A stretch of 64,000 nt of DNA, from positions 3,167 through 67,166 of the forward strand of contig CAYJLH010000004.1 in assembly GCA_964370925.1 (NCBI GenBank), given 5' to 3'. Each line of letters begins with the position of its first letter. The stretch's first letter is position 1. The notes under the pieces were generated by a model. That model was not told where the DNA came from. It made no database searches and saw only the letters and a program-made list of their open reading frames with translations. The position numbers and the translations under genes are program-made. The stretch is from an uncultured Oscillospiraceae bacterium. Its GTDB lineage: Bacteria > Bacillota > Clostridia > Oscillospirales > Oscillospiraceae. Positions 9,956 through 41,398 of the stretch are shown piece after piece.

Positions 9956-12046
9956 ATGAATAATATTCCTAATATGTTTGGTTGCAAAGTTTTTAACGAT
10001 AATGTTATGCGTACCAGACTTCCAAAAGACGTTTACAAAGCACTTCATAAAACTATTGCTGAAGGAAAACAGCTCGATGTTAAAGTTGCAAATGTTATCG
10101 CCACTGCTATGAAAGAGTGGGCAGTTGAAAACGGCGCAACTCACTACACTCACTGGTTCCAACCCATGACAGGGTCAACCGCTGAAAAGCATGATAGCTT
10201 TATTTCTCCTATTAATAATTGTGAAATTATTATGGAGTTTTCAGGTAAAGAGCTTGTTCGTGGTGAACCCGATGCATCAAGCTTCCCCTCTGGTGGACTT
10301 CGTGCGACTTTCGAAGCTAGAGGATACACAGTCTGGGACACAACTTCTTATGCTTTTATAAAAGACGATTCCCTCTGTATCCCAACAGCTTTCTGCTCAT
10401 ACAGCGGTGAGTCGCTCGACAAAAAAACTCCTCTACTACGTTCTATGGAAGCTATTAACAAGCAAGGTTTGCGTATTATCAAGCTTTTCGGTAATAGCAC
10501 TGCAAAGAGAATTATCACAACAGTTGGTGCTGAACAGGAATATTTTCTCGTAGACAAAGAAGTTTATCTAAAACGCCCCGACCTTATAAACTGCGGTAGA
10601 ACTTTATTCGGCGCTCGCCCTCCCAAGGGTCAAGAGCTTGAAGACCACTACTTCGGTTCTATAAAACCAAGAGTTTCGGCTTATATGAAAGAGCTTGACG
10701 AAGAACTTTGGAAAGTTGGCGTTTTCTCAAAAACAAAACATAACGAGGTTGCTCCGGCTCAACATGAGCTTGCGCCCGTTTTCACAACAACTAACCTAGC
10801 GACTGACCAAAACCAAATCACTATGGCACTTATGAAAGACATCGCCCAAAAGCACGGACTTGTTTGTCTTTTACATGAAAAACCCTTTGCTGGGGTTAAT
10901 GGTAGCGGTAAGCACAATAACTGGGCAATTTCGACAGATACAGGTATTAATCTACTTGAACCAGGTGAAACACCTCATGAAAATGCTCAATTCCTATTGT
11001 TCCTAACTGCAATCATCAAAGCCGTTGACGTTTATCAAGACTTGCTCAGAATTTCTGTTGCAAGTGCCGGAAACGACCACAGACTGGGCGCTAACGAAGC
11101 TCCCCCTGCTATTGTTTCTATCTTCCTCGGCGATGAACTTACTGAAATTTTAGACGCACTAAAAAGTGATTCTGATTACGAAGGTAAAGAGCGTATCCAA
11201 ATGGAAATCGGCACAACCGTTCTTCCTCCGTTCCCAAAAGACACAACAGACCGCAACAGAACTTCACCTTTTGCTTTCACAGGCAATAAGTTTGAGTTCA
11301 GAATGCTCGGTTCTTCAATTTCAATCGCAGGTGCAAACATCATCCTAAACTCTGCTGTTGCAGAAATTTTCGAAGAGTTTGCAGATACACTTGAAAAAGC
11401 AGACGATTTCAAATCGGCTCTTACAAAACTTATTAGAGACACAATCAATAAGCACGACCGTATTATTTTCAACGGAAATAACTACTCTCAGGAGTGGGTT
11501 GAAGAAGCAAAAAGACGTGGTCTATCTAACCTACAGACAACTGTTGACGCTCTTCCAACTTTCCGCAGTGAAGAGAGCAAGAGAATGTTTGCTAATCAAT
11601 GTGTTTTCTCTGGTACAGAAATTGATGCGAGATACGAAATCCTTATGGAGGGCTATTGTAAGACCATACATATTGAGGCTCTCACAATGATTGACCTTAC
11701 TAAAAAGGAAATTTTGGCTTCATCTTTTGAGTATCAATCAGAACTTGTTACACTTTTAAACGGCAAAAAAGCAGTTGGAATTGACACAAGCTCAGAGGAA
11801 GCACTTGTTAAGAAGCTAACAGCTTTGACAAAAGATTTGCTTGCAAAAGTCGATCTACTCGAAACAAATGTCATGAAAGCGTCTGAAACTTCAAATGACA
11901 TTTTAGCTCACGCACAGTATTACAGAAATTCTATTTTCTCTGTCATGAATGAACTTAGACTAGTAGTCGACGAGTTGGAAACCATAGTTGCAAAGAAGCA
12001 CTGGAAATTCCCCTCATACATGGAACTACTATACAGTGTAAACTAG
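9956..12046 (+). CDS. glnN: glutamine synthetase, type III
   Basis: 696 aa, the GSIII length class. Motifs NEVAPAQHELAPVF and NGSGKHNNWAIS. Confidence 0.92.
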   Translation: MNNIPNMFGCKVFNDNVMRTRLPKDVYKALHKTIAEGKQLDVKVANVIATAMKEWAVENGATHYTHWFQPMTGSTAEKHDSFISPINNCEIIMEFSGKELVRGEPDASSFPSGGLRATFEARGYTVWDTTSYAFIKDDSLCIPTAFCSYSGESLDKKTPLLRSMEAINKQGLRIIKLFGNSTAKRIITTVGAEQEYFLVDKEVYLKRPDLINCGRTLFGARPPKGQELEDHYFGSIKPRVSAYMKELDEELWKVGVFSKTKHNEVAPAQHELAPVFTTTNLATDQNQITMALMKDIAQKHGLVCLLHEKPFAGVNGSGKHNNWAISTDTGINLLEPGETPHENAQFLLFLTAIIKAVDVYQDLLRISVASAGNDHRLGANEAPPAIVSIFLGDELTEILDALKSDSDYEGKERIQMEIGTTVLPPFPKDTTDRNRTSPFAFTGNKFEFRMLGSSISIAGANIILNSAVAEIFEEFADTLEKADDFKSALTKLIRDTINKHDRIIFNGNNYSQEWVEEAKRRGLSNLQTTVDALPTFRSEESKRMFANQCVFSGTEIDARYEILMEGYCKTIHIEALTMIDLTKKEILASSFEYQSELVTLLNGKKAVGIDTSSEEALVKKLTALTKDLLAKVDLLETNVMKASETSNDILAHAQYYRNSIFSVMNELRLVVDELETIVAKKHWKFPSYMELLYSVN

Positions 12047-12073: not shown

Positions 12074-12133
12074 GCACAATGACGTGTATTTTCCGAATTA
12101 ATTTTCGGGAACTACACGTCTAATTTTATTTTT
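12074..12133 (+). terminator. intercistronic terminator/attenuator between glnN and amtB
   Basis: Long hairpin GACGTGTA...TACACGTC (12081-12120) with inner TTCCGAA/TTCGGGAA pairing, then TAATTTTATTTTT. The hexaloop hairpin GCAC-AATGAC-GTGT (12074-12087) overlaps its 5' arm. Confidence 0.65.
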
Positions 12134-12146
12134 GGAGGTATTTATT

Positions 12147-13826
12147 ATGTTCTCAGCAGTTGATACAATTTGGACCTTACTAGCCGCCGCATTGGTTTTT
12201 TTCATGCAGGCTGGATTTGCAATGGTGGAAACAGGCTTTACAAGAGCAAAAAACGCCGGTAACATCATCATGAAAAACATCATGGACTTTTCACTGGGCA
12301 CTCTTATGTTCTGGCTAATCGGTTTTGGCTTAATGTTTGGCGGTGATGGAGCATTTATCGGTGGTTTCGACCCCTTTATCAGAGGCGATTATAGCTCATC
12401 TATCCCAACATCAGCTTTCGTAATATTTCAAACAGTTTTCTGTGCAACAGCTGCAACCATCGTTTCGGGTGCAATGGCAGAGCGCACAAAATTTTCAACC
12501 TACTGCATGTACAGCGTTATTTTAAGTGCTATTGTCTACCCAATTTCAGGTCACTGGATATGGGGCGGCGGTTGGCTTTCACAGCTAGGATTTCATGATT
12601 TTGCCGGCTCAACAGCCGTCCACATGGTTGGTGGTGTTGCCGCTTTAATCGGCGCAAAAACTCTTGGTCCTCGTATAGGAAAATACACTAAAGACGGAAA
12701 ATCAAAAGCTATCCCAGGGCACAGCTTAACTCTTGGCGCATTGGGCGTTTTCATTCTTTGGTTCTGCTGGTTTGGATTTAACGGTGGTTCAACCGTTTCA
12801 ATGACAGACGGTTCTATAGAAGCAGCATCAAACATTTTTGTAACCACAAACATAGCTGCCGCTGCAGCAACAGCAGTTGTAATGGTCATCACATGGGTTC
12901 GCTACAAAAAACCTGACGTTTCAATGACATTAAACGGCGCTCTTGCCGGTCTTGTTGCAATCACAGCAGGCTGTGACGTAGTCACTCCAGCAGGTGCATT
13001 CGCAATTGGTATTATAGCTGGTTTCGTTGTCGTATTTGGAATCGAATTTGTTGACAAAGTTCTAAAAATTGACGACCCTGTCGGCGCTGTCGGAGTTCAC
13101 GGCATGGCAGGTGCTGTTGGTACTATCTTAGTCGGTGTGTTCGCCGTTGACGGTGGTTTGCTATATGGCGGTGGGTTTGCTTATCTTGGTGTGCAAACTA
13201 TCGGTGTTCTAGCAGTTATCGCTTGGGTTTCTGTCACAATGTCTATCGTTTTCACAGTTCTTAAAAACACTGTTGGACTACGTGTTACACACGCAGAAGA
13301 AATTGCCGGTCTTGACATTGAGGAACATGGACTATCAAGCAGTTACGCAGACTTTATGCCTGTTCCAATGGGAACAAACTTCAAACGCAGTGAAGATATT
13401 GAAGAAATCCCAGTCGCAGCAGTTGACGTTGACGAGGCTGTCCCTGTAATTAACACAGCAAAAGCAGGCACAAAAATGTCTAAAGTCGTTATTGTCACAA
13501 GTCAGACCAAGTTTGAAACGCTTAAAAAAGCCTTAGACGGGCTTGGAATTACAGGTATGACTGTAACTCAAGTTTTGGGTTGCGGTATGCAGAAAGGCTC
13601 TACAGCGCTTTACCGCGGTGTTCCGGTAGAGACAAAACTTCTTCCCAAAATCAAAATCGAGATTGTTATATGCAAGGTACCGCTATTGCTTTTCATTAAC
13701 ACAGTTAAAAAGGCACTATACACTGGCAACATCGGCGATGGAAAAATCTTCATCTATGACGTTGAAAATGTAATTAAAGTCAGCACAGGCGAAGAGGGAT
13801 ATGAAGCTCTTCAAGACATAGTTTAA
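12147..13826 (+). CDS. amtB: ammonium transporter fused to a C-terminal P-II (GlnK/GlnB-like) domain
   Basis: Amt multi-TM core (FAMVETGFTRAKN, HMVGGVAALIGA, DPVGAVGVHG). A ~50-aa linker. P-II domain (MSKVVIVT...GMTVTQVLGCGMQKGSTALYRG...GDGKIFIYDV). One uninterrupted frame. ATG 12147 after GGAGG. Confidence 0.9.
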   Translation: MFSAVDTIWTLLAAALVFFMQAGFAMVETGFTRAKNAGNIIMKNIMDFSLGTLMFWLIGFGLMFGGDGAFIGGFDPFIRGDYSSSIPTSAFVIFQTVFCATAATIVSGAMAERTKFSTYCMYSVILSAIVYPISGHWIWGGGWLSQLGFHDFAGSTAVHMVGGVAALIGAKTLGPRIGKYTKDGKSKAIPGHSLTLGALGVFILWFCWFGFNGGSTVSMTDGSIEAASNIFVTTNIAAAAATAVVMVITWVRYKKPDVSMTLNGALAGLVAITAGCDVVTPAGAFAIGIIAGFVVVFGIEFVDKVLKIDDPVGAVGVHGMAGAVGTILVGVFAVDGGLLYGGGFAYLGVQTIGVLAVIAWVSVTMSIVFTVLKNTVGLRVTHAEEIAGLDIEEHGLSSSYADFMPVPMGTNFKRSEDIEEIPVAAVDVDEAVPVINTAKAGTKMSKVVIVTSQTKFETLKKALDGLGITGMTVTQVLGCGMQKGSTALYRGVPVETKLLPKIKIEIVICKVPLLLFINTVKKALYTGNIGDGKIFIYDVENVIKVSTGEEGYEALQDIV

Positions 13827-14047: not shown

Positions 14048-15676
14048 CTAAGATTTTGGTATAATACCATACCCATTTGCGAGTGCATAGTCATGAGCAT
14101 ATGTTCCCACATTACAGCGAATATCGACTTCCATTGCACCCATGCTAAAACCTGTGTCCAATCTACCCTCAATGTTGACAACACTATCAGGTAAGTCGAT
14201 TATGATATCTTCTTGTCCACTAAACATGAATGCACTTCTTCCTATTTCTGTAACACCCTCTGGAACTATAATTTCATCAGGGTCTTCCTTTTGGATGATG
14301 ATAACATAATTACTTGCAATTCGTTTGACTTCCGGAAGATAAACTATCTTCTCGCCATACTCAACAACGTAGTGAACAAGGTTGCTGTCACCAATTATCC
14401 ACGAAGTTCTACCGCCGATATAGTTATCATAATACCAAGCACTGTAAACAAATGAATCACCCGTAACATCAGTCAAACTGTTTGGAATGTATAGTTCATG
14501 CAAGGATTCGCACCCAGAAAAAATATCATCACCCGCAGTGGTCATGCCCTCGGGCAAATATGCCGCTTGCAATTTTTCACTGCCATAAAATGCCTCGTCC
14601 GATATTGATTTTAGGTTGGTTGAAAAAGTCACAGTTGTCAAACTGTCATTTTTGTAAAATGAACGCACACCAATTCTCTCGACAGTGTTTGCCATTACAA
14701 CAGTTTCTATGGATTCATTTTCCAAAAATGCAAAGGCATCTATAACTCTAATCCCCTCGGGAATTGTAATATTTTTACTACTTCCGACATATTTAACCAA
14801 GACATCGTTTATTATAACCATTCCATCTTGTGCATCGCCAATCGGATAATCAGAAAAATCGAAAGATGCTATACCTAGCTTCAAGTTTCGCGGAATATCT
14901 TGTAACGCCCAGCCACTGTAAGCCATTTGGTCTGAAAGACTGTCTTCGTTCCAATGGCTAAACGCAAAGTCGCCGACTTCTTCAAGTGTAGATGGCAAAT
15001 CACCAAAAACTATACTATCTTCGTCTGCATCATAACCACTGAAAGCTCGATTTCCTACATATTTCAGACCCTCATTTAATTTGGCATACTCCAAACTATA
15101 GCAACTGAAAAATGCGTAATCGCCTATAGATTCAAGGGTTTCTGGGAAAATTACCGCCGTTATATAGTCATCATAGAATGCATATTCGGGAATGTGTTTT
15201 GCACCCTCAGGGATGACTAAAACTGCATAATCAGGTACTTCCATAGGAATTACATTTCCATTTTCATCGATTTCAGCCGTAAATTGCTCACGGCTTGCAT
15301 ACTCAGACGGAATTCCTGTCTCATCTTCTACAGGCTCTTGTATAGCCACTTCTTCTGAATAATCAACAGTTTCAGATGTAAATATACCCATAATAGACGA
15401 GAAATTGGACATTATAGCAAAAAATGCAATCAAAAATACAATTGAAACTAAAGGATTTCTTTTCTTGCTTTTAGAACCAGCTTTTGTATTTTTCATTCGC
15501 TCTTTTTCCTCAGCTAGTTCTCTTGCTCTTCTTGCCAGTTCTTGAACTTCATCAAAATCTTTTTGTTTTTGGCTTTTTTCTTTTCCAAAATCTACTGTGT
15601 GAAGTCCGCCACAACCTGGGCAAACTCCCTCACTTTTCTTTTCGTTAAAACTTCTTCCACACCAATCGCAATTCAT
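14048..15676 (-). CDS. membrane-anchored BspA-type leucine-rich-repeat protein with N-terminal zinc ribbon
   Basis: CDWCG...CPGCGG, one TM segment, then repeated IPEG..xIgxxAF modules (IPEGVTEIGRSAF, IPEGIRVIDAFAF). Confidence 0.7.
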   Translation of the reverse strand: MNCDWCGRSFNEKKSEGVCPGCGGLHTVDFGKEKSQKQKDFDEVQELARRARELAEEKERMKNTKAGSKSKKRNPLVSIVFLIAFFAIMSNFSSIMGIFTSETVDYSEEVAIQEPVEDETGIPSEYASREQFTAEIDENGNVIPMEVPDYAVLVIPEGAKHIPEYAFYDDYITAVIFPETLESIGDYAFFSCYSLEYAKLNEGLKYVGNRAFSGYDADEDSIVFGDLPSTLEEVGDFAFSHWNEDSLSDQMAYSGWALQDIPRNLKLGIASFDFSDYPIGDAQDGMVIINDVLVKYVGSSKNITIPEGIRVIDAFAFLENESIETVVMANTVERIGVRSFYKNDSLTTVTFSTNLKSISDEAFYGSEKLQAAYLPEGMTTAGDDIFSGCESLHELYIPNSLTDVTGDSFVYSAWYYDNYIGGRTSWIIGDSNLVHYVVEYGEKIVYLPEVKRIASNYVIIIQKEDPDEIIVPEGVTEIGRSAFMFSGQEDIIIDLPDSVVNIEGRLDTGFSMGAMEVDIRCNVGTYAHDYALANGYGIIPKS

Positions 15677-15723
15677 TTAACTTCTCCGTTTTCTTATTTA
15701 AAAATCACTGTTTTACCGAATTT

Positions 15724-15753
15724 GAGTGGATAGGCTAAATTACCTATCCACTC
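15724..15753 (-). terminator. hairpin downstream of the signalling operon
   Basis: GAGTGGATAGG-8 nt-CCTATCCACTC (11-bp perfect stem). No clean U-run on the minus strand. Confidence 0.45.
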
Positions 15754-15759
15754 AATAAT

Positions 15760-17292
15760 TTAAAATTGTGCTATAAATCTGTCTAAAATGACTGCCATTT
15801 CAGCGCGAGTTAGTAGTTTATCAGGAGCTAAAAGTCCCTCGTCAGTACCTTTTACTATGCCAGCGGAAACGGCCCACTGCATAGCCTGAACCGACCAATC
15901 AGGCAGGCTTGAGGCATCCGAAAATTCATCAAGAGTTGCCACTTCAAAATCTTCCATTCCCAAATCAATCCCGTAGCGATATAGGAAAGTTACGCATTGC
16001 GCTCTTGTGAGTGAATCATTTGGCAAAAATCTATCCCCGTCGCCCTGTGCAATTTCTGTAAATGCCGCCCATTTCGCAGCTTTTTCATAGTATGAATTTG
16101 CCTCCAAATCGGAGAAGCTCACGCTTCCATCAATGACAGTATTTGGACGAAGTGCTGTTTCAACTCTTGAGAGCGAGGTAATGAACATCGCACGATTTAC
16201 AGTTGAATTCGGTGAAAATTCACCACCACCTGTGCCATTTACAATTTTATCAGCACTGATTTCAGCAACGGCAGAAGCAAACCAATCACTTGCATTGACA
16301 TCACTAAAAGTAGTATTATTAGCGCTTAAATCTAAAGTGTTAACCATATTAGTGAAGCTATCTGCGATATAAAGTTCGTCGTCTACAAGCGCTAATCCAA
16401 CCGGGTTTACAGGCGATAGACCATCTTCAAATCCACCTGTCAAAATCACCGTTTCAGCTCTGCCATCGACAATTTTTCTAACCGCACCATTTCCACTATC
16501 CGAAATGTACAATTCTCCATCATTTGCTATAACTTCTATAGGAGCAGAGAAAAGTGCATTTTTGCCGTTTATAAATCCGTCAATGCCCTCTGTAGAGCCT
16601 GTCAAAGTTGTAACAACTCCATCTTCAATTGCACAAATGCGGTTATTTTCAGTGTCAGCCACATATAAAATTCCATTTTCGTATTCAAGCCCTGTTGGTG
16701 AATTGAAAAGTGCGTCGTCGACGTCTCCATCTGCCCTACCCGCTTCATTTGGTGTTCCTGCAAAGAGTGTAACTTTGCCGTCAGTGTCCATTTTTCTTAT
16801 AACATGGTTGCCACTGTCAGAAATATACACGTTACCCTCTTCATCAACTGCAAGACCTGTCGGGCGGTTGAATTCAACGTCACGGCGTGTTCCATTGCTG
16901 TAACCCTCGTCACTGCCAGCGATTAGTTCAACTGTTCCATTTTCGAGATTTAGCAGTCTAATTCTATGGTTTTCGCTGTCACTAATTGCGTATCCGTCAC
17001 CATATTCCACAATATCCCAAGGAGAGAAAAATCTCGCCTCTTCAACAGTTCCATCTCTATAACTGCCCGAGGGTGTTCCATCAGCATTAGTAGCTCCAAG
17101 CGCACCGGCAATTACTGTAAACTCACCATTTTCAAGTTGCCAAATTTGATGATTATATGTATCTGTAATAATCATACTCCCATCACTGTCAGCTAAAATT
17201 GACGAAGCCGAAATAGGCGTTTCTGCTGCCAAAGTTGTCACACTTCCGACCAAACCTATGGCAAAAGCAGTGGATAAAATTGTCTTTTTCAT
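15760..17292 (-). CDS. secreted NHL-repeat protein with C-terminal SLH (S-layer homology) domains
   Basis: Signal peptide. NHL-like repeats (SDSGNHVIRKMD, ADTENNRICAI, SDSENHRIRLL). Three SLH-like segments (FSDV..WFA.., FSDL..YYEKAAKWA, FSDA..WSVQAMQWA). Confidence 0.8.
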   Translation of the reverse strand: MKKTILSTAFAIGLVGSVTTLAAETPISASSILADSDGSMIITDTYNHQIWQLENGEFTVIAGALGATNADGTPSGSYRDGTVEEARFFSPWDIVEYGDGYAISDSENHRIRLLNLENGTVELIAGSDEGYSNGTRRDVEFNRPTGLAVDEEGNVYISDSGNHVIRKMDTDGKVTLFAGTPNEAGRADGDVDDALFNSPTGLEYENGILYVADTENNRICAIEDGVVTTLTGSTEGIDGFINGKNALFSAPIEVIANDGELYISDSGNGAVRKIVDGRAETVILTGGFEDGLSPVNPVGLALVDDELYIADSFTNMVNTLDLSANNTTFSDVNASDWFASAVAEISADKIVNGTGGGEFSPNSTVNRAMFITSLSRVETALRPNTVIDGSVSFSDLEANSYYEKAAKWAAFTEIAQGDGDRFLPNDSLTRAQCVTFLYRYGIDLGMEDFEVATLDEFSDASSLPDWSVQAMQWAVSAGIVKGTDEGLLAPDKLLTRAEMAVILDRFIAQF

Positions 17293-17319
17293 TTCTATAT
17301 CTCCTAACTACCTTTTGTA

Positions 17320-19125
17320 CTACAGAATTTTCTCAACTGAAAAGACTTCAAATGGTTCACTTTTTCCTTTTAAACTTAGAGTTCCAAGCGATTTGAATTC
17401 ACCTTGGCCTTCAAGTGCATCCGCAACCGCACGACTTACCAATATTTGTCCTGATTTGGAATTGCTTTCAAGTCTTGCCGCTGTGTTAACTGTATCGCCG
17501 ATAGCTGTGTAGTCCATTCTTTTCGGAGAACCTATGTTACCGACAACAGCAGAACCAAAGTGAACACCAATACCAAAGTCAACACTATGTCCAAATTCTG
17601 CCATCAGTTCTTCTCCAAGAGCTTTTGCACCCTCTCTCATGTCAACCGCAGCTTTGACTGCAAGGTAAATCGGGTTTTCCTGTGGAAGTGGCGCTCCCCA
17701 AAATGCCATGGTGCAGTCACCGATATACTTATCAAGTGTGCCTCGATTTTGGAAAATACAGCTACTTGTTAATGTCAAATATTTATTTACTATTTCAACA
17801 ACCTGTCTTGCGTCAAGTTTTTCTGACATAGTCGTAAAGCCTCGAATGTCGACAAATAAAACAGCAATATCTTTCAAATCTCCGCCAAGTTCAAGTGCTT
17901 GTGGGTCGCCTTTTAAAAGCTCGTTTGCAATTTCAGGCGCGAGGTATCTGTGCAATGTATTTGTAACTTTTCGCTTTTCAAATGTTGCTCTTGTGTAGTT
18001 TGCTCCTACCGAAATCACGTACGCAACCGTCAGTGCTAATGGCAAATACACGATATGTATTACATATCCCGAGTTAAACGCAAAGATACAAAATCCTACG
18101 CACGCTAGGACAGACGCAAACCAAACTGCTGTCGAAATGCGTATTCCTCGGTCATAGAACCAGAAAAACGCTAAAAATGTGATTAAAAATATCGCTATTG
18201 CCTGAGGAACTTTTGATACTTCTTCTTTTAGTTCTCCGCTCAAAAGTGCTGCGACTGCGTTAGCTTGGTATTCAACTCCGTACATTTTTACAGAGTGGTC
18301 TACAGCTGTAATGTAGTCGTCCTGCATCCCCTGTGAGTATGGCCCGATTAGTACAATTTTGTCTGCAAATAGCTGTGGGTCAAGCTCTTGATATACAAGG
18401 TCTGCAATAGAAAATCCATCGTCAAACGCACCTGGCGCAGATTGATAATTCAAATACCACATATGCCTTGGGTCTGTGGGTGGAACTGCAAAATCAGTCT
18501 CGCCCTGAGATTCCATATACATATTATATACAGCGCGGTGAAACGAGGGTATTTCTCTTCCATCGGGTAAGTCAATTTGCCAAATAGCATGGCGCAAAAT
18601 TCCATCAAAGTCTAACATACCGTTGATGTGACCTTGCTCTGTGACTTCTTTTAAAGCTTCGTACGGTTCTTCATACTGCAAAACTGCAAAAGTATCCAGA
18701 TAAAAAGAGCCGTCGTCGTTTACAACAAGTTCCTCGCCAAATGTTGCCGTTGAACCTGTAACGACATTTCCATATCTTCCCGATGCTTCAACCAAGGCGG
18801 CGTCGGCGTCGGGATATTCACTTTCACCTATATAAGTCGTATCAATTCCGATTACTGCCGGGCGATTTTCGGGATCTTGATTTAAATACTCAATCGCCTC
18901 CGCCATGATATCTCTAGGCCACGGCATAGGGCCGAATTCATCAACCGCCCTTTCATCCATACCAATAAGTATTATTTCGGATGGTGGGGTTTTCGGCTGT
19001 TGGTAGGCTACGTCGGCTAACACGTTAGCCTGTGTGAGCATGATATCAGTGGAATAGAGCACTGTGAAAAACAGTGCTCCAACCGTAGCTAGCAGAAAAC
19101 GCTGAATTTGCTTGCGTTTATTCAT
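17320..19125 (-). CDS. CHASE2-domain class III adenylate/guanylate cyclase
   Basis: N-terminal TM. Periplasmic-type CHASE2 pattern (IILIGMDERAVDEFGPMPWPRD). Three TMs. Cyclase core (VLFVDIRGFTTMSE, KYIGDCTMAFWG, IGDTVNTAARLES). Confidence 0.85.
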   Translation of the reverse strand: MNKRKQIQRFLLATVGALFFTVLYSTDIMLTQANVLADVAYQQPKTPPSEIILIGMDERAVDEFGPMPWPRDIMAEAIEYLNQDPENRPAVIGIDTTYIGESEYPDADAALVEASGRYGNVVTGSTATFGEELVVNDDGSFYLDTFAVLQYEEPYEALKEVTEQGHINGMLDFDGILRHAIWQIDLPDGREIPSFHRAVYNMYMESQGETDFAVPPTDPRHMWYLNYQSAPGAFDDGFSIADLVYQELDPQLFADKIVLIGPYSQGMQDDYITAVDHSVKMYGVEYQANAVAALLSGELKEEVSKVPQAIAIFLITFLAFFWFYDRGIRISTAVWFASVLACVGFCIFAFNSGYVIHIVYLPLALTVAYVISVGANYTRATFEKRKVTNTLHRYLAPEIANELLKGDPQALELGGDLKDIAVLFVDIRGFTTMSEKLDARQVVEIVNKYLTLTSSCIFQNRGTLDKYIGDCTMAFWGAPLPQENPIYLAVKAAVDMREGAKALGEELMAEFGHSVDFGIGVHFGSAVVGNIGSPKRMDYTAIGDTVNTAARLESNSKSGQILVSRAVADALEGQGEFKSLGTLSLKGKSEPFEVFSVEKIL

Positions 19126-19148
19126 TTTAGCTCCTTTTAGTCATATCA

Positions 19149-21707
19149 TTAATAATTTGTCATAATAAAATATCCTGAAGCATCGGCATTATCTGCCACT
19201 GTTCCACCGCTAGAAATAACATCCGTTTTATCTTTCGCCCTTGCAACCGCAGCTGCATAGGCATAAGTTATACTTGGACTTCCAGACATAATATCAACAG
19301 CATATCCTTCACCGACTGTATCTTTTGTGATAAATCCCTTTACGAAGTTGAGAGTTGATGTGCCATCTTCTAGTGATACCGCCGAGCCATCTGTACTTGA
19401 ATTTGATATTTCTACACCATTAATTGTCAATTCACTTCCCGAAGAAACCAAAACAGTTTTATCATCACTAGAAATTAGTTTTCCATTTCCACCGACTATG
19501 GTCACATCATTATCTATTGTCATACGTGCTTCTTGAGTATCTGATGGGTTCACTCCCAAGTCGAATGTAAAGCCTCCAAGATTTAATTCTATTTCATTAT
19601 CGATAATCAAACCATTAAATGAATCAGAGAGCGCAGTATTTTCGTATAAGCTGATAGTATCACCATCTACAGCACTGTCAAAAACCGCTTGTAGACTTTG
19701 CTCATACATGTATCCATTGCCTCTTTCTCCATCAAATCTCATTGAAATAAGGTCAACATTATTAGATAATTTAGATATTAACCCAGAAGTTTTTAGCAAG
19801 AATAATTCACCAACATTCGACACTAGGCAACCATTAAATTCAACATCACCACTGCCACTATCAAAAACACCTGTATTTTCTAGTGTCTTATCCGACAATG
19901 TAATATCACCTTTATTTATTATTGTCCCTGTGTTATGAAGTTGGACTCCGGCTGGTGCAGTCAATTCACCCCCAACTGTTAAGGTGCCATAAGCTTCATT
20001 TGTAAATCTACCAGCATTTCCAAATCCACCATTGGCTGTTACATCACCGTTGTTTACAACTGTTCCAAAGGTAGATGCAGCATTGTCTTCAAGATTTAAG
20101 AACGAACCCTCAGTTTCGACAGTACCGTTCAAAGTCATCACACCTTGGTTTTGGATTTGATTAGCTGTGATACTTGCAGAATTTCCGTTTGTAAACTCAC
20201 CACCAAAATCATTTAGAAAAACATCTGCAACTTCAATTTTTCCTTGGTTTGTGATTTTTCCTACGGAGCGTAAATCTTGTGAAACTTTTATTTCTGATAA
20301 AGCTGTATTGTTTGTAATTTCACCATTGTTATAACAGGTCATCTTGCTCGCATCAGAATTTGTAATTTCCAATATTCCGTCGTTTGAAAGTATGCCCTCT
20401 TCAACAGATAATTGATTTACAGTTAGTTTGTCACCTGATGAAATGTAAACTCTGGCTGACTTGCCAAGGCTTGTCGAACCAACATACAAGACATCTTCTA
20501 ATGTTGCATTTCCATTTAAAATAAAGCTGTTATTGCTTAGAATAAATGTTTGAATTCCAGCACCTATTTTAAGTTCACCACCATCAGAAACGACAAGTGA
20601 ACCCTCAACTTGAATTTGTGGAGTTCCTGATGCTGCAATGAATTCAACATCCGCACCCGACTGAATATAAACACCTTTTCCTGTTGGAATTAGTGCAGAT
20701 TCACTAATTGTAATGTCTTTTTCTCCTGAAATTACAACATTTTTAACACCCTCAACACTTAGCTGAGTTATTAGTTCTTCAAATGTAGAGCCTGTAAAGA
20801 GTACTGTGGGTGATACATTTCCATCGCTATCATCGTCACTGCTTCCACCGCTACTGGGTCGGCTTGGTTCTTCCTCTTCTGCGGCTTCTTCGTCTAATTT
20901 TTCGTTCTCTTCGGCCTCAACATCGATTTCAGCTTGTGCAGTTTCGACAATGGCTTCTTGTTTTTCTTCTTCCGCTTTTAATTCTTCTTGCGCATTCTCA
21001 ATTAGAGTATTCGAATCTAAACCACTTTGTTCCTGAACAACCGCTTGAAGCTCTTCGTCTTTCTCAACTTCAACTTTTACGAAAGCCGGAACTATTTCCT
21101 CTGTAAGTGGAGTGATTTCGGGCGCATTTCCGCTTTGTTCTTCGACACTGGCTTTGAAGCCCGCTTCTAAAATTTCTGTTTCGACTTCTGTTGTCCCTTG
21201 CTTTACAGAACTGACTTCAACGCGACCCGAAAGCAAAGAAACTTCACTGCCATTTTCATTCAATTCAACAAATCCTGATGTCCCTCTGATACCTGTAACC
21301 ATACTAGACGTTCTGACTGTCATGGTTTCGGTTTCTTTAAGAGGCGCTGTTACATTGAAAAATAGCTTTCCTGTTGACAGTAAAAGCTCAAGCTGTTCGC
21401 CTTTCTTTTTAACTGTGCAAGTTGTCAATGAGTCGAGCTTCACGACCTTATCATCATCAAGGCTTATATAAGCATAGCTTGAAGATGAAGTTGTGATTTT
21501 ATACCCATTATTGAGTTTCATTCCCTCTCTTGCGGTTATCGTGTTGCCTGCTGCGTTTTTTAAAGTTATAGTTCCCTCTATAACTTCAAGGCGCAAAGTT
21601 GATGAAACTGCGCTGTCCGCAGCTATAGCCACTGTTCCCAAAAGCATTGCAACTATTAGGAAAATTGCAACTGATTTGGAAGCACCGGCAAGTTTTGATT
21701 GATGCAT
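19149..21707 (-). CDS. exported FecR-domain protein with acidic linker and long beta-helix-like repeat region
   Basis: Start at ATG 21707 (RBS AGGGGGA). Signal/anchor sequence. FecR-like N-domain (GYKITTSSSSYAYISLDDDKVVKL...VRTSSMVTGIRGT). Glu/Asp-rich linker. Repeats of the xNxGxIxxxG type. Confidence 0.65.
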   Translation of the reverse strand: MHQSKLAGASKSVAIFLIVAMLLGTVAIAADSAVSSTLRLEVIEGTITLKNAAGNTITAREGMKLNNGYKITTSSSSYAYISLDDDKVVKLDSLTTCTVKKKGEQLELLLSTGKLFFNVTAPLKETETMTVRTSSMVTGIRGTSGFVELNENGSEVSLLSGRVEVSSVKQGTTEVETEILEAGFKASVEEQSGNAPEITPLTEEIVPAFVKVEVEKDEELQAVVQEQSGLDSNTLIENAQEELKAEEEKQEAIVETAQAEIDVEAEENEKLDEEAAEEEEPSRPSSGGSSDDDSDGNVSPTVLFTGSTFEELITQLSVEGVKNVVISGEKDITISESALIPTGKGVYIQSGADVEFIAASGTPQIQVEGSLVVSDGGELKIGAGIQTFILSNNSFILNGNATLEDVLYVGSTSLGKSARVYISSGDKLTVNQLSVEEGILSNDGILEITNSDASKMTCYNNGEITNNTALSEIKVSQDLRSVGKITNQGKIEVADVFLNDFGGEFTNGNSASITANQIQNQGVMTLNGTVETEGSFLNLEDNAASTFGTVVNNGDVTANGGFGNAGRFTNEAYGTLTVGGELTAPAGVQLHNTGTIINKGDITLSDKTLENTGVFDSGSGDVEFNGCLVSNVGELFLLKTSGLISKLSNNVDLISMRFDGERGNGYMYEQSLQAVFDSAVDGDTISLYENTALSDSFNGLIIDNEIELNLGGFTFDLGVNPSDTQEARMTIDNDVTIVGGNGKLISSDDKTVLVSSGSELTINGVEISNSSTDGSAVSLEDGTSTLNFVKGFITKDTVGEGYAVDIMSGSPSITYAYAAAVARAKDKTDVISSGGTVADNADASGYFIMTNY

Positions 21708-21735
21708 TTGTTTTTTCCCCCTAAAACTTTTCAAG

Positions 21736-23184
21736 TTAAATATAAAGTGCTTTTTCCCAAGCACGACTATCCGCAAACAGTCTGAATAATTCTCGATCGA
21801 GTTTTCCCTCTTCGACCATTTCTGCCAAAATTATCAGAGCTTTTTCAGGTGAAACACCGCTTTTATATGGTCTATCCAATGCAGTTATCCCCTCAAATAT
21901 ATCCAAAATTGTCAAAAGCCTTGTTTCCATGTCTAGTGTTTCACCACTTTTGCAGTCGGGATAGCCTGTCCCGTCTAAAAACTCATGGTGCGCCCCTGCC
22001 CATTTCGGTACATTTTTATAGTCACCGTCAAACCTAATTTTTTCAAGTATATCGCGAGTGACTCTTACATGGCTTTCCATTACCTGTCTTTCCGTCGCTG
22101 TCAACGTGCCTTTTCTGATACACAGTGCATCGATTTCATCCTCTGTCAGCCAAGTACATTCCTCGCCATGTTGGTTTGTATATTTACGTCTGCCCAATGC
22201 AATTATTTCCTCGAGTCGTGAATCTTCAACATATCCCATGGAATTAATTACAATAACTTGCTCTCTTGCATAGTTTAGCTCTTCTAAAAACTTTGTGCAG
22301 TCTTTCTGTTGTTCCAAGGCTTCGACCTTACCCAGAAGCGCAATTATGTCAAATCTTGTCATAATCTCTTCCAATTTTTCTTCAAGCCTTGTTCCCTTGT
22401 TCATAACTTCAAGCGGTATGACAAGTTTTCCAACATCATGTAGCCAAATACTCATCAAAAATTGGCGTCTGTGTCGCTCATCAAATTTAATGCTTGAATT
22501 TATTTCATCCAAATAGTCCATGAAAGCATTGGCATATTTAACCATATTCGTCGTGTGATGGACATTATATGGTGTTCTATGGTAAATTACAGTTGAAAAA
22601 GTCTCAACAATAGACTCCATCAAGTCCTGCATTTTTCTTGTGTAATTCATATTCGTAAGGCTTACAGCCGCTTGTGATGCCAAAGCAAGCAAAATAATTT
22701 CGCTCTCAGGGATAAATGCAATAGTCACATCATCCTCATCTTTTGCATTAATCAACTGCATAACGCCAATGATTTCGCCCCTGTCATTTTCCATAGGAAC
22801 AACCATCATAGATTTAGTTACATAACCTGTTAAAGAATCGTAACGAATAGGCCCTGAGAAGTCGAAAAGTTCACTTCTTCTAACATCAGGGATATTCACC
22901 AAACGATTTTCAAGCACAGAATAAGCGCAGACATGCGAGTGATTTAGGGCAACAGGCGGTAAGTCAATTTTTCCGTGTACGCCACCCTTTAAAATATCGA
23001 GCGACTTTGTCACCATCACTTTAAATTCAAGTGCATCATTTTCTAAAATATATATCGTTCCACCATCACATTGAGTGATGCTCATTGCTTCTGTCAATAT
23101 GCGTTCCAAAAGTCGGTCGCCGTTTTTCTCAACCGCCATTGCAATATTTAAAGCTAAAAGTCTATGGATACTTACACCTTTCAT
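21736..23184 (-). CDS. GAF-domain HD-GYP phosphodiesterase
   Basis: GAF-like N-terminus (GGTIYILEND...GVMQLINA). HD (WLHDVGKL) and HHEFLDGTGYP motifs. Confidence 0.85.
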   Translation of the reverse strand: MKGVSIHRLLALNIAMAVEKNGDRLLERILTEAMSITQCDGGTIYILENDALEFKVMVTKSLDILKGGVHGKIDLPPVALNHSHVCAYSVLENRLVNIPDVRRSELFDFSGPIRYDSLTGYVTKSMMVVPMENDRGEIIGVMQLINAKDEDDVTIAFIPESEIILLALASQAAVSLTNMNYTRKMQDLMESIVETFSTVIYHRTPYNVHHTTNMVKYANAFMDYLDEINSSIKFDERHRRQFLMSIWLHDVGKLVIPLEVMNKGTRLEEKLEEIMTRFDIIALLGKVEALEQQKDCTKFLEELNYAREQVIVINSMGYVEDSRLEEIIALGRRKYTNQHGEECTWLTEDEIDALCIRKGTLTATERQVMESHVRVTRDILEKIRFDGDYKNVPKWAGAHHEFLDGTGYPDCKSGETLDMETRLLTILDIFEGITALDRPYKSGVSPEKALIILAEMVEEGKLDRELFRLFADSRAWEKALYI

Positions 23185-23987
23185 ATGGAGAAAACCTCCC
23201 CTCTTTTTGCGAAAAAGCTATTTTCCATCTCGGATTTCAGCTTATTTTCCTCAAATTTGAGTTCGTCATCGGTGCGATTTGGGTCGTGGTGGAAAATACA
23301 AAGGTGCTCAGCGCCGGCTTCCTTTGCTAGTTTTGCCGTTGTCATTATACTAGAATGACCAAAACCTCTGTGAGTTTCAAGCTCCTCTTCCGTATACTGT
23401 CCATCGCAAATTAAAAGTGAGCAGTTTTTTGCAAACTCAATAAGCTTGCCACGGCTGTTTTCCGTAATTTCATAATCGGTTGAATACACCAAGGTTTTTC
23501 CGTCATAACTGATTTTATAGGCGGTACAACCACCGGGGTGTTGACCTTCCATGATTTCTATTTCAACATCGCCAATAGAAAATCCACCTGTAAGCTCTTT
23601 AAATTCAACTTTCGATGTAAATGCACCAGAATCAACCGCCCAAAGTGGAGGTTTCATCAGAGTTTCAAGTTGCTCCCTCGGCCCTCCGACTGCACGTTTC
23701 ACCGCATAAATCGTCACTTGGCAGTTTTCGTTATACAATATTCTTGAAATAGGCAGACCCAACAAATGGTCAGCATGGGGATGTGAAATCAAAATATGTA
23801 GATTATTTTCGTTTTCCTTTAGCAGAGCAGGTAAAGAAACAAAACCACTGCCCGCGTCCAAAACTATGCATTGTTCGCCAACACGCAAAAACACACATGC
23901 CGTCGCCCCTCCGTATTCAGAGTACATAGGCCCATCAATGGGAACTGAACCACGCGCTCCGAGTATTGTGGCTTCGAATTTTCGCAT
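23181..23987 (-). CDS. metallo-beta-lactamase-fold hydrolase
   Basis: HxHxDH motif (ISHPHADHLLG). ATG 23987 after GGAG. ATGA-type overlap with the HD-GYP gene. Confidence 0.8.
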   Translation of the reverse strand: MRKFEATILGARGSVPIDGPMYSEYGGATACVFLRVGEQCIVLDAGSGFVSLPALLKENENNLHILISHPHADHLLGLPISRILYNENCQVTIYAVKRAVGGPREQLETLMKPPLWAVDSGAFTSKVEFKELTGGFSIGDVEIEIMEGQHPGGCTAYKISYDGKTLVYSTDYEITENSRGKLIEFAKNCSLLICDGQYTEEELETHRGFGHSSIMTTAKLAKEAGAEHLCIFHHDPNRTDDELKFEENKLKSEMENSFFAKRGEVFSI

Positions 23988-24141
23988 TAACAATCTCCTT
24001 TTATTATAAATAGTATTATTTTATATTTTCAAAAAATTTTTATTAAGACCAGACAATATTTTATCATAACTCGCGAATTTTGAAAAGACGTTATGTGTGA
24101 ACATTTCGATAATTTTCGCCAAAATTCGTAAGTTTTTCTTG

Positions 24142-25795: not shown

Positions 25796-26302
25796 ATGAA
25801 ATGTACAAACTGTAATGAAGAATTCAGCATCAAACTTGACAGATGCCCATATTGTAAACAGGAAGTTATCACCTATGTTGTAAAGGAAGAGCAGTTTGTA
25901 AATCGTGGAAGAGTTAGAAATAACTGGGTAAAAGAGATGATAGACAGACCATATTTAAACGCACTTTTAGCCTCGAGTTTTGCAATTGTCTTATACAAGA
26001 GTGCAGATTTGTTTTATGTCTGGAGCAATCCTTTTTCTCTTGTTCCATTTATTGTAGTTTTATATACCCTCATATATTTCGTAATCCCATGGCTTTATTC
26101 GGATGCAATAATCCTCACAATGGCTTATATATACGAAGTTAAATACGGCACAGAAATTTTCGATTGGAAAGAAAAAAAAATTCAAATTGCCTGCTTTGCC
26201 ATACTCCCCTTCTATGTAAATGCGGTTTATATGATACTGAGCTTTGCTCTCATCATCGTATTTTTAATCGTAAAGCTTGTTTACAGAACAACGAGAAAAT
26301 AA
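25796..26302 (+). CDS. zinc-ribbon membrane protein, function unknown
   Basis: CTNC...CPYC N-terminus followed by ~4 hydrophobic segments. Confidence 0.5.
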   Translation: MKCTNCNEEFSIKLDRCPYCKQEVITYVVKEEQFVNRGRVRNNWVKEMIDRPYLNALLASSFAIVLYKSADLFYVWSNPFSLVPFIVVLYTLIYFVIPWLYSDAIILTMAYIYEVKYGTEIFDWKEKKIQIACFAILPFYVNAVYMILSFALIIVFLIVKLVYRTTRK

Positions 26303-40702: not shown

Positions 40703-41359
40703 TCAAAGCAGTATTTCAAACTCATTTTTTGAAAATTTTATTATGCCCTCTTTCTGCATTTTCGATAGTTCATTTGAAAGCGCACTTCTATCCGCACATA
40801 GAAAACTCGCGAGTTGTTCACGATTTAACTCTATAGTAAACTTTTTAGCGCCTCTCCTTGAATAGTTGAAATATGCCATAATCTTTTCCCTCAGAGTTTT
40901 CTTAGAAATAATATCAATTTTTTGGTTTAGATACAGACTTTTTCTGGCTATAACCTTTAGCATATTGGAAATTAGTGTCTGATGAAACCTACATGATGAA
41001 CTACATGTCGTAACAATTTTCCTATAGTCTAAAAACAAAACCCGACTTTTCGCCCCTGCGACTATCGAAACAGGGCTTTGAAAAATATCCGCACACGCGA
41101 AAACCTCCAAAAAGATATCCCCGTCAGATATCTCGGCAATTATTGTTTCATTTCCGTTTTCATCAGACTTCATAACTCTAACTTCACCCGAAATTACTAT
41201 TCCTACAAAATCTATTTTGTCACCTAAGTGTAAAATATACTCATTTTTGGCGTAGCTCTTTTCAAATGCGGATATGCAATTAAACATAGCATTAAAATCT
41301 TCTCTTGTGATATTATCGAATATAGGATGTGCACATACTAAATCAAAATAATTTTTCAT
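40703..41359 (-). CDS. Crp/Fnr-family transcriptional regulator (HcpR-like by context)
   Basis: cNMP-binding-like N-terminus and C-terminal HTH (REQLASFLCADRSALSNELSKMQKEGII). Start at ATG 41359 after AAAGGGG. Divergent from hcp. Confidence 0.8.
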   Translation of the reverse strand: MKNYFDLVCAHPIFDNITREDFNAMFNCISAFEKSYAKNEYILHLGDKIDFVGIVISGEVRVMKSDENGNETIIAEISDGDIFLEVFACADIFQSPVSIVAGAKSRVLFLDYRKIVTTCSSSCRFHQTLISNMLKVIARKSLYLNQKIDIISKKTLREKIMAYFNYSRRGAKKFTIELNREQLASFLCADRSALSNELSKMQKEGIIKFSKNEFEILL

Positions 41360-41373
41360 AATACCCCTTTTTC

Positions 41374-41398
41374 GTTGTGTAGACAACAGATTTGTTGT
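41374..41398. promoter_or_regulatory. overlapping palindromes in the crp/hcp intergenic region (candidate operator)
   Basis: GTTGT-gtag-ACAAC (41374-41387) and ACAACA-gatt-TGTTGT (41383-41398), just upstream of TATAAT 41405-41410. Confidence 0.35.

Follow-up and report, generated by a model that had tools for sequence, protein, structure and literature searches.

What joins the genes of a receptor-type cyclase, of two further predicted cyclic-nucleotide enzymes and of two envelope proteins into one tightly packed set? The question is raised by a 64,000-nucleotide (nt) stretch of DNA from an uncultured Oscillospiraceae bacterium (assembly GCA_964370925.1, contig CAYJLH010000004.1, positions 3,167 to 67,166), which in its full length is called the window here and which carries five genes on the minus strand between positions 23987 and 15760. 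The first gene (23987..23181) encodes a metallo-beta-lactamase (MBL)-fold hydrolase of 268 amino acids (aa) counted from its ATG; the longest open reading frame (ORF) begins at a TTG at 23993. Its stop codon region is overlapped by 4 nt by the gene of a GAF-HD-GYP protein (23184..21736; 482 aa), which is followed, after gaps of 28, 23 and 27 nt respectively, by the genes of a FecR-module protein (21707..19149; 852 aa from its ATG), a CHASE2 cyclase (19125..17320; 601 aa) and an NHL-SLH protein (17292..15760; 510 aa). A ribosome-binding site of the GGAG or GGGG type lies ahead of all five ATGs, and the Pfam domains of all five proteins exceed the gathering cut-offs. A preliminary description of the locus had named the same tight minus-strand array, its domains and its signature motifs, and the spacing, the Pfam matches and the translations agreed with it throughout. 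We infer co-transcription, and the five-gene set is probably one transcript.

The best reading of the locus, and one that is considered reasonably probable, is that the five genes form one signalling cassette, a relay from a receptor to second messengers. It is carried by the arrangement of the genes, the domains of their products, the sets of catalytic residues and the recurrent linkage of the parts in other genomes. The conserved unit is a core of three enzymes, the MBL protein, the GAF-HD-GYP protein and the CHASE2 cyclase; across phyla, CHASE2 is often accompanied by the FecR module, and occasionally but recurrently by the NHL protein.

The three-enzyme core

Conservation was followed in 80 loci taken from one-genome-per-species collections, in which neighbours were sought by tblastn and by iterated profiles seeded from the window. 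Genes within three ORFs of the cyclase were counted in 50 loci of the Clostridia/Firmicutes type and in 28 loci from other phyla. A GAF-HD-GYP gene was found at this distance in 20 of the 50 Clostridia-type loci and in none of the other 28, and a GAF-GGDEF gene in 10 of the 50 (five free, in L013, L025, L033, L039 and L051, and five fused as MBL-GAF-GGDEF) and again in none of the 28. The MBL gene, fusions included, was present in 15/50 and 1/28 loci, a FecR-module gene in 30/50 and 11/28, an NHL propeller in 6/50 and 0/28 and a protein with a cyclic nucleoside monophosphate (cNMP)-binding domain in 5/50 and 5/28, while a TIM-barrel protein of the AP_endonuc_2 family, about 260 aa long, was counted in 19 of the 50 Clostridia-type loci. 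As an internal control, ORFs within three genes of the cyclase were compared with ORFs farther away in the same loci; the near/far odds ratios were 19 for FecR, 33 for HD-GYP, 50 for GAF, 23 for MBL and 16 for the TIM-barrel (p from 1e-5 to 1e-11).

The core is kept where the rest of the neighbourhood has changed. In L082 and L083, at about 60% identity, only the trio of MBL, GAF-HD-GYP and cyclase genes is retained, in wholly different surroundings, which are Rnf and hydrogenase genes in L082 and a ribosomal-protein operon in L083; a convergent cNMP-binding/DUF2225 gene adjoins the trio in the former and GGDEF-EAL genes adjoin it in the latter. The trio also occurs in L001, L005, L006, L035, L041 and L042, and the 4-nt overlap between the MBL and GAF-HD-GYP genes recurs in L001, L006, L041, L042, L082 and L083. 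All five parts are found together in Clostridium aestuarii (L027), whose cyclase is 37% identical, in the order NHL-AC-FecR-MBL-GAFHDGYP (AC, adenylate cyclase). Elsewhere the arrangement varies among MBL-GAFHDGYP-(FecR)-AC, AC-MBL-GAFHDGYP, AC-TIM-GAFHDGYP and AC-MBL~GAF~GGDEF. It was further observed that proteins joining a cNMP_binding domain to DUF2225 or to a SpoIIE/PP2C phosphatase adjoin cyclases (L082:11883-13061, L034:5073-6194, L021:8798-9982), and such cNMP-binding-domain neighbours are candidate direct effectors of cyclic AMP (cAMP).

The cyclase matches CHASE2 (PF05226) with 124.9 bits and Guanylate_cyc (PF00211) with 94.4 bits against a cut-off of 21.9. Its hydropathy profile gives a first transmembrane (TM) segment at aa 10-30, an ectodomain, a TM block at aa 303-376 and then the catalytic domain, so that the PF05226 ectodomain (18175..19062, minus strand; aa 22-317 by Pfam and hydropathy) lies between TM segments as in a CHASE2 receptor. 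The catalytic domain (17356..17874, minus strand; aa 418-590) contains the motifs FVDIRGFT, KYIGD and IGDTVNTAARLES. All of 22 homologues share the metal-binding residues D426 and D470, the substrate residues K466 and T540 and the transition-state residues N547 and R551. At E <= 1e-20, 5793 homologues were found, among them a 100% identical cluster (P0001), although an exact-sequence look-up of the cyclase gave no record; the relatives that place the organism are metagenome-assembled genomes of uncultured Oscillospiraceae.

In class IIIb cyclases the substrate is defined by a Lys and by a Thr that replaces Asp, while in class III guanylate cyclases the two sites are occupied by Glu and by Cys or Gly. 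K466 and T540 align with the Lys and Thr of Pseudomonas aeruginosa CyaB (3R5G), which is the closest structure in the Protein Data Bank (PDB; 2e-33), followed by Spirulina CyaC (1WC0); both are class IIIb adenylate cyclases. By its residues the protein is a receptor-type class IIIb adenylate cyclase, and cAMP is its expected product, since the Lys/Thr set and the closest structures point the same way; the use of ATP proposed in the preliminary description is thus favoured. A cyclase that makes cGMP or another cyclic nucleotide in place of cAMP is very improbable. The close PDB matches do include Synechocystis Cya2 (2W01), which we take to be of a guanylate-cyclase lineage, and the GAF domain encoded in the same locus also matches the cGMP-binding GAFs of PDE5 and PDE2; against this stand the invariance of K466 and T540, their alignment with an adenylate cyclase and the different residues of guanylate cyclases at both sites.

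The GAF-HD-GYP protein matches the Pfam families GAF and HD_5, contains the motifs WLHDVGKL and HHEFLDGTGYP and finds V-cGAP3 (5Z7C) and PmGH (4MCW), itself a GAF-HD-GYP protein, among PDB sequences. Its GAF domain (22654..23118, minus strand; aa 23-177) matches PDE5 GAF-A (1.5e-10), CyaB2 (1YKD, 2.3e-7), PDE2A GAF-B (2.9e-5) and Lcd1 (5W10, 2.2e-4), and a D116-x2-T-G-Y-x-T123 motif is conserved family-wide. In sister loci, the GAF domains of the cyclase-linked GAF-GGDEF proteins match CyaB2 (1.4e-24), Lcd1 (1e-11), PDE10 GAF-B and PDE5 GAF-A. The domain is predicted to be of the cNMP-binding type, in the PDE5/CyaB2/Lcd1 group, as had been proposed before.

In the HD-GYP domain (21775..22602, minus strand; aa about 195-470), the residues H209, H249-D250, H372, H399-H400-E401, G406-Y-P408 and D428 are kept in 21 family members, so that the HD, HHE and GYP motifs and the further metal ligands are all in place. 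An insert of about 90 aa (aa 262-350; window 22137-22401) lies between the HD and HHE motifs in 20 of the 21 family members; it splits the domain, and Pfam HD_5 therefore matches only the C-terminal half. The position of E185 in PmGH is taken by a Tyr (P-Y-N-V-H-H), as read across separate alignments; the protein thus lacks the Glu that marks the trinuclear subgroup, which points to the binuclear HD-GYP subgroup rather than to non-membership of the family.

As to the substrate, a review of HD-GYP proteins assigns the reading of the first guanine, and with it specificity for cyclic di-GMP (c-di-GMP), to an RxY[K/R] motif and the contact with the second base to a KPG motif, and it connects flexibility in how the second base is bound with a tolerance of adenine, as in cGAMP. 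RxY[K/R] is present as R437-P-Y-K440 and kept in the 21 family members. The KPG motif is altered to N-K-G-T-R-L, with K263 kept and no Pro-Gly. The change to K-G-T, together with the finding that Vibrio cholerae V-cGAP3 is the best PDB match of the C-terminal half (1e-19), would fit 3'3'-cGAMP as the substrate. This alternative to c-di-GMP is nevertheless highly unlikely in view of the conserved c-di-GMP-specificity motif, of the sister loci in which the same GAF is joined to GGDEF, a c-di-GMP synthase, and of the GGDEF-EAL genes that flank the trio in L083; no cGAMP synthase was seen nearby. The GAF-HD-GYP protein is predicted to be a cAMP-gated c-di-GMP phosphodiesterase.

The MBL protein matches Lactamase_B_2 (PF12706) with 59 bits and contains the motif S68-H-P-H-A-D-H74, in which HPHADH is included. 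D44, H69, H71, D73, H74, H150, D171, H211 and H233 are invariant in 44 homologues and make up a full binuclear-metal site. Its AlphaFold2 (AF2) model reaches a predicted local distance difference test score (pLDDT) of 96.6, and its structural neighbours in Foldseek are all phosphodiesterases: RNase Z, YhfI (6KNS), BA1088, the PhnP family, a Brucella MBL protein with AMP/GMP bound and Apyc1. YhfI is also among the top sequence matches, with an identity of about 20%. Assignment to RNase Z, PhnP or beta-lactamase was rejected by curated cut-offs and by length: the two RNase Z models give 78.5 and 75.3 bits against cut-offs of 252 and 293, the PhnP model gives 16.7 bits against 272, and the chain of 268 aa is shorter than those of RNase Z (306-320 aa). 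The protein fits the signature of atypical class-II cNMP phosphodiesterases, [T/S]HxHxDH with PF12706; Rv1339, which was modelled on YhfI, typifies these enzymes (PMC9293780), and the motif reads SHPHADH here. It is predicted from this to be a cAMP/cNMP phosphodiesterase of the Rv1339/YhfI 'atypical class-II' type, in keeping with the class-II-like enzyme of the preliminary description.

Two variants of this part of the core were observed. In five loci (L009:11806-13518, L031:3071-4918 and also L010, L011 and L037) the gene directly downstream of the CHASE2 cyclase encodes MBL, GAF and GGDEF in a single chain, a fusion that recalls eukaryotic GAF-regulated phosphodiesterases. In 19 loci, including L015:11830-12615, L025:11737-12513 and L034:8102-8875, the slot of the MBL gene directly after the cyclase is taken by the AP_endonuc_2 TIM-barrel gene. 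Among curated families this protein comes nearest to the CbiR phosphodiesterase and to endonuclease IV, without reaching the cut-off of either. A locus with both MBL and TIM-barrel is hardly ever seen; the TIM-barrel protein may be a non-orthologous replacement of the MBL enzyme and is possibly a new class of cyclic-nucleotide phosphodiesterase.

Envelope proteins and the proposed relay

The FecR-module protein is predicted to be membrane-anchored, with one N-terminal hydrophobic segment by hydropathy. Its FecR match (PF04773, 48.6 bits) is confined to some 100 aa in the N-terminal part, namely ORF residues 93-187, or roughly aa 70-165 when counted from the ATG. Its AF2 model, with a mean pLDDT of 79, consists of a TM helix, an all-beta module, an acidic helix, a disordered linker and a run of short strands. 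The all-beta module (21108..21596, minus strand; aa 38-200) was matched by Foldseek with a probability of 1.0 to the C-terminal cell-surface signalling domain of PupR (6OVK) and to BDI_1681 (4M0N), with a root-mean-square deviation of about 3 Å over about 145 residues. It is followed by an acidic helical stalk and a disordered Ser/Gly/Asp linker (20808..21086, minus strand; aa 208-300), of which the helix spans aa 208-277; the linker has 24% Glu, and pLDDT falls below 50 at aa 277-298. The C-terminal region of short-strand repeats (19203..20807, minus strand; aa 301-835) has no Pfam match. At aa 301-630 the short strands are modelled with a pLDDT of about 90 and give weak Foldseek matches to the passenger domains of Ag43 and Hbp and to tailspikes (E 0.005-0.8). 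The beta-helix-like repeats claimed earlier are on this basis plausible, short of being proven.

Although it shares the FecR/PupR module, the protein is no anti-sigma factor of the FecR type: with some 8 residues ahead of the TM helix it has no cytoplasmic anti-sigma domain, and neither an ECF sigma factor nor a TonB-dependent transducer was found among the neighbours scanned. The parts of the protein evolve at different rates. Identity to the orthologue in the nearest relative (L081) is 42% for the whole protein, 69% for the module and 32-35% for the C-terminal region, against 80% for the cyclase; the hypervariability of the C-terminal surface part stems from diversifying selection or else from a relaxed constraint. 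In other loci the FecR proteins share only the module, their C-termini being RCC1 propellers, Flg_new repeats or unassigned sequence, and FecR+LRR_5 fusions occur among the database homologues (P0212, P0216, P0241, P0244). Two of the fusion genes have no adjoining cyclase: P0239 (L084:2053-6498) encodes FecR, beta-helix-like, SLH and NHL parts in a single chain, and P0241 (L085:4290-7481) a FecR module, Flg_new repeats and leucine-rich repeats (LRRs) of the BspA type. Two further chains, P0232 (FecR with the second half of a cyclase) and P0176 (MBL and CHASE2 fragments with a cyclase tail), were rejected as Rosetta-stone evidence; each lacks the first metal-binding motif and looks like a deletion or assembly chimera of neighbouring genes.

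The NHL-SLH protein, predicted to be secreted and also with one N-terminal hydrophobic segment by hydropathy, matches NHL with 97.7 bits and SLH with 107.7 bits in three stretches. The NHL beta-propeller (16318..17205, minus strand; aa about 30-325) is followed by three C-terminal SLH wall-anchor repeats (15763..16317, minus strand; aa 326-510). NHL proteins adjoin CHASE2 cyclases in L004, L027, L030, L044, L047 and L048.

From these parts the following relay is proposed. The CHASE2-TM-cyclase would be a receptor-type adenylate cyclase whose ectodomain is controlled from outside the membrane, most likely through contact with the membrane-proximal FecR module and not through a small ligand; such contact is favoured because FecR/PupR-type regulators use the same fold as a protein-protein signalling domain. 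The FecR-module protein would extend its fast-evolving, beta-helix-like 'antenna' through the wall on the acidic helical stalk, and the SLH-anchored NHL propeller may be an optional, wall-bound partner of that antenna. Inside the cell, cAMP would bind the GAF domain of the GAF-HD-GYP protein and activate hydrolysis of c-di-GMP, a cross-talk from cAMP to c-di-GMP as in Tlr0485. The MBL enzyme, whose gene is translationally coupled to that of the GAF-HD-GYP protein, would degrade cAMP and reset the signal. Ligands, substrates and the contacts of FecR with CHASE2 and with NHL are the proposed elements of this scheme. It draws support from the finding that the same GAF type drives HD-GYP or GGDEF beside the same cyclase, from the clustering of cNMP-binding proteins with these cyclases and from the presence of a phosphodiesterase-fold gene, MBL or TIM-barrel, beside the cyclase even without HD-GYP. 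As either GAF-HD-GYP or GAF-GGDEF stands beside the cyclase, the c-di-GMP output would be hydrolysis in some lineages and synthesis in others.

Several observations weigh against the relay. The loci lack phylogenetic independence, and their neighbours were sought with profiles that the window itself had seeded. The strict five-gene order occurs only in L081, where the cyclase is 80% identical; it has the same flanking genes as well, and this relative thus represents ordinary synteny and no independent evidence. The FecR and NHL-SLH genes are missing from L082 and L083, and FecR-module surface proteins occur away from cyclases, as both fusion genes checked (P0239, P0241) illustrate. The MBL protein scores 58.8 bits (E = 5e-16) against a cut-off of 400 with the NCBIfam model cyc_nuc_deg_phdiest (NF041851), in an alignment that spans positions 3-229 of 253, and among its distant homologues checked (31-36% identity) two of three had no nearby cyclase and one had a cyclase two genes off; the MBL-cyclase linkage is subfamily-specific. 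In the GAF domain, NKFDE, which we take to be the signature of cNMP-binding GAFs, is only partly present, the sequence reading N-A-K...F-x3-S-E; the GAF-GGDEF protein of L025 reads N-K...F-x3-E-D at these positions. PmGH, whose GAF is similar to that of the window, has no known ligand, and the altered KPG motif described above belongs to the same list.

The points on the MBL enzyme and the GAF domain would suit an arrangement in which the enzymes are linked and the wiring differs: the GAF would sense something other than cAMP, such as cGMP, a metabolite or nothing, and the MBL protein would be no cAMP phosphodiesterase and might clear pGpG or another nucleotide product of the HD-GYP or act on RNA. 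In addition to the homologues without a nearby cyclase, the incomplete NKFDE motif and the PmGH precedent, the MBL protein stays under every curated cut-off, and RNase Z and PhnP-type enzymes are among its top structural neighbours. Such different wiring is regarded as quite unlikely. An MBL or TIM-barrel slot lies directly beside the cyclase without HD-GYP in L022, L034, L036, L043 and L049, and this speaks against an activity that depends on the products of HD-GYP; proteins with a cNMP-binding domain cluster with these cyclases, the GAFs score best against cAMP- and cGMP-binding GAFs, and the same architectures are under cAMP control in Tlr0485 and Lcd1. The cAMP gating envisaged for the GAF-HD-GYP protein has in Tlr0485, as described by the papers that cite it, an experimental precedent by analogy.

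A second alternative concerns the envelope side, where the FecR-module and NHL-SLH proteins would be ordinary wall or surface proteins such as adhesins, placed or expressed together with the cyclase and without a part in sensing, and CHASE2 would sense a ligand of its own. It would account for the absence of both genes from the relatives at 60% identity, in which the trio is kept, for the FecR+SLH+NHL and FecR+LRR fusions without a nearby cyclase and for a C-terminal region that evolves fast and weakly resembles Ag43, a self-associating adhesin. This view appears somewhat doubtful. FecR genes lie within three ORFs of the cyclase in both sets of loci at the counts given above, with a near/far odds ratio of 19, and the pairing of FecR with CHASE2 is published for CHASE2 histidine kinases and for CHASE2 cyclases (PMC5192318, PMC9239204), where the neighbourhood stated in the preliminary description is documented. 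Only the FecR module is constant while the C-termini vary (beta-helix, RCC1 propeller, Flg_new, LRR), which fits a coupling module with exchangeable sensors, and the fold of the module is that of a known protein-protein signalling domain.

For the relay as first put forward, the outcome is uneven. That the genes belong together is borne out for the trio, which recurs in many Clostridia and in unrelated contexts, and for the five parts as a set in the different order of L027; the strict five-gene order did not extend beyond the nearest relative. To call the circuit 'self-contained' was too strong, since neither an effector nor a diguanylate cyclase is present in the cassette or in the 64-kb window. 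Sensing by the FecR-module and NHL-SLH proteins had been overstated: these roles are proposed ones, and FecR-module proteins, a FecR+SLH+NHL fusion among them, also stand apart from cyclases.

A joint proposal that goes further is rather unlikely as a whole. Here CHASE2 would be a docking partner of FecR-fold envelope modules and not a small-molecule sensor, and the TIM-barrel protein would represent an unrecognised class of cNMP phosphodiesterase. The exchangeable outer parts (beta-helix, NHL and RCC1 propellers, LRR, Flg_new) may then do the sensing, and in Clostridia the relay from cAMP to GAF would switch c-di-GMP down through HD-GYP or up through GGDEF.

Cyclic AMP signalling is little studied in Clostridia, and to our knowledge few of the signals that CHASE2 receptors read have been identified. 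Together with its many relatives from Clostridia of gut and rumen, the cassette offers a compact, testable system that comprises a receptor cyclase, a candidate co-sensor, a candidate reset enzyme and a candidate cross-talk enzyme, with natural experiments in the exchange of HD-GYP and GGDEF under the same GAF, in the exchange of MBL and TIM-barrel and in the MBL-GAF-GGDEF fusions. If the relay is correct, cross-talk from cAMP to c-di-GMP would reach beyond single cyanobacterial and Leptospira proteins and become a widespread design at the level of operons; the TIM-barrel could represent a new class of phosphodiesterase, and the input that is missing for CHASE2 receptors could lie in FecR-fold modules.

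Transcription signals and flanking genes

An AT-rich gap of 154 nt (23988..24141, minus strand) lies upstream of the MBL gene and is, by its sequence, the probable promoter region. It contains several sigma-70-like matches, which are not discriminating. The top match (24032..24003) ends only 15 nt ahead of the MBL ATG and was dropped as a transcription start, as its transcript would lose the ribosome-binding site. No terminator-like site was found 3' of the upstream NAGPA gene, and read-through from that gene is thus possible. At the other end, a hairpin (15755..15722, minus strand) with a 14-bp stem directly follows the stop codon of the NHL-SLH gene. It folds with -23.2 kcal/mol (z = -6.1), and none of 200 shuffled sequences folded equally well. 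The terminator-like hairpin reported before is therefore real as a hairpin; as a classic intrinsic terminator it is unsupported, since the U-tract is absent, and the terminator scan did not call it. It is possibly a terminator or an RNA-stabilising element.

The upstream flank consists of the gene of an exported NAGPA/Cu_amine_oxidN1 protein and a MatE transporter gene, functionally unrelated to the cassette. The former was rejected as a cassette member; among the related loci its counterpart was found only in the nearest relative. Downstream, a gene for a BspA-type LRR protein (14048..15676, minus strand; LRR_5, 145.5 bits) follows the cassette at 83 nt on the same strand, and beyond it, on the other strand, lie genes for an Amt-PII fusion and a type III glutamine synthetase, likewise unrelated in function. 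At its N-terminus the LRR protein has a CxxC...CxxC segment that resembles a zinc ribbon, and it has a single TM segment. Whether it is a sixth member of the cassette is uncertain: a BspA-LRR gene precedes the SLH-NHL and cyclase genes in L004, and FecR+LRR_5 fusions exist, and contrary to this the gene is otherwise kept only in L081.

Further genes of the window were recorded in passing. The ammonium transporter-P-II fusion (12132-13826, plus strand; a 564-aa ORF) adjoins the type III glutamine synthetase gene (9956-12046, plus strand). A small protein encoded at 25796-26302 (plus strand) has an N-terminal CxxC...CxxC followed by hydrophobic segments and no Pfam match. A 227-aa Crp/Fnr-like protein with a cNMP-binding-type domain (40703-41386, minus strand), divergent from a 4Fe-4S protein gene, is the sole other cyclic-nucleotide-related match in the 64-kb window; no GGDEF gene was found in the window, and no effector of cAMP or c-di-GMP in either the cassette or the window.

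Comparison with known systems

The closest parallel to the proposed cross-talk is Tlr0485, a GAF-HD-GYP protein that was activated by cAMP experimentally, according to the passages on it in papers that cite the work (PMC8846402, PMC10124867, bioRxiv 10.1101/2021.11.05.467447). As far as architecture and these descriptions allow comparison, the two-domain architecture and the proposed logic are the same; the passages do not describe Tlr0485 as a member of a cyclase operon. The window protein differs from it by the HD-GYP insert of about 90 aa and by translational coupling to the MBL gene. Lcd1 of Leptospira interrogans (PDB 5W10) is a GAF-GGDEF protein, a diguanylate cyclase that is activated by cAMP. 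It resembles the present system in that a cAMP-sensing GAF governs a c-di-GMP enzyme, the GAFs of the sister loci matching it at 1e-11 and that of the window weakly at 2e-4, and differs in that its output is synthesis, whereas the window has HD-GYP and the GGDEF version occurs only in related loci.

[quoted passage not shown] Measured against that outline, the window has the CHASE2 cyclase, a predicted phosphodiesterase and a FecR-domain extracytoplasmic protein as neighbours. It has no TPR protein, and a GAF-linked c-di-GMP enzyme and the wall-anchored NHL-SLH protein are additions of the Clostridia version. TPR/beta-barrel genes were found only in diderm loci, where pairs of CHASE2 cyclase and FecR genes are accompanied by a protein of about 500-530 aa with N-terminal TPR repeats and a C-terminal, Slam-like beta-barrel (L053:7170-8666, L058:4553-6142, L059:11969-13489, L069:14866-16464). 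This protein, which resembles Slam (surface lipoprotein assembly modifier) proteins, possibly corresponds to the 'TPR protein' in the Campylobacterota cluster, and export of the FecR protein to the cell surface could be its role; in L061 and L067 an HbpS-like protein was observed in its place.

In Burkholderia, the BiofilmReg operon encodes a response regulator, a LysM-FecR protein, a CHASE2 histidine kinase and a DUF4136 protein (PMC5192318). There, too, the gene of an exported FecR-domain protein directly adjoins the gene of a CHASE2 receptor, the gaps being tiny; a histidine kinase, not a cyclase, forms the output, LysM stands in place of the beta-helix, and cyclic-nucleotide enzymes are absent. 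The CHASE2 cyclases CyaD1, CyaD2 and CyaK of Sinorhizobium meliloti need the outer-membrane protein NsrA (PMC13001267). These are likewise CHASE2 adenylate cyclases that require a separate envelope protein and answer a protein signal, not a small molecule; they differ in that NsrA is an outer-membrane beta-barrel of a diderm, the effector is the Crp-like Clr and no link to c-di-GMP is described. The MBL enzyme shares PF12706 and [T/S]HxHxDH with Rv1339, Corynebacterium glutamicum CpdA and YhfI (PMC9293780), and differs from them as a separate, Clostridia-centred subfamily below the family cut-off.

A full-text search of the literature found no description of the Clostridia cassette. Relative to the systems compared here, the operon that joins a CHASE2 cyclase to a GAF-linked c-di-GMP enzyme in Clostridia is new, and so are the swap of HD-GYP for GGDEF, the swap of MBL for the TIM-barrel and the monoderm set of accessory parts, i.e., the beta-helix, NHL-SLH and LRR.

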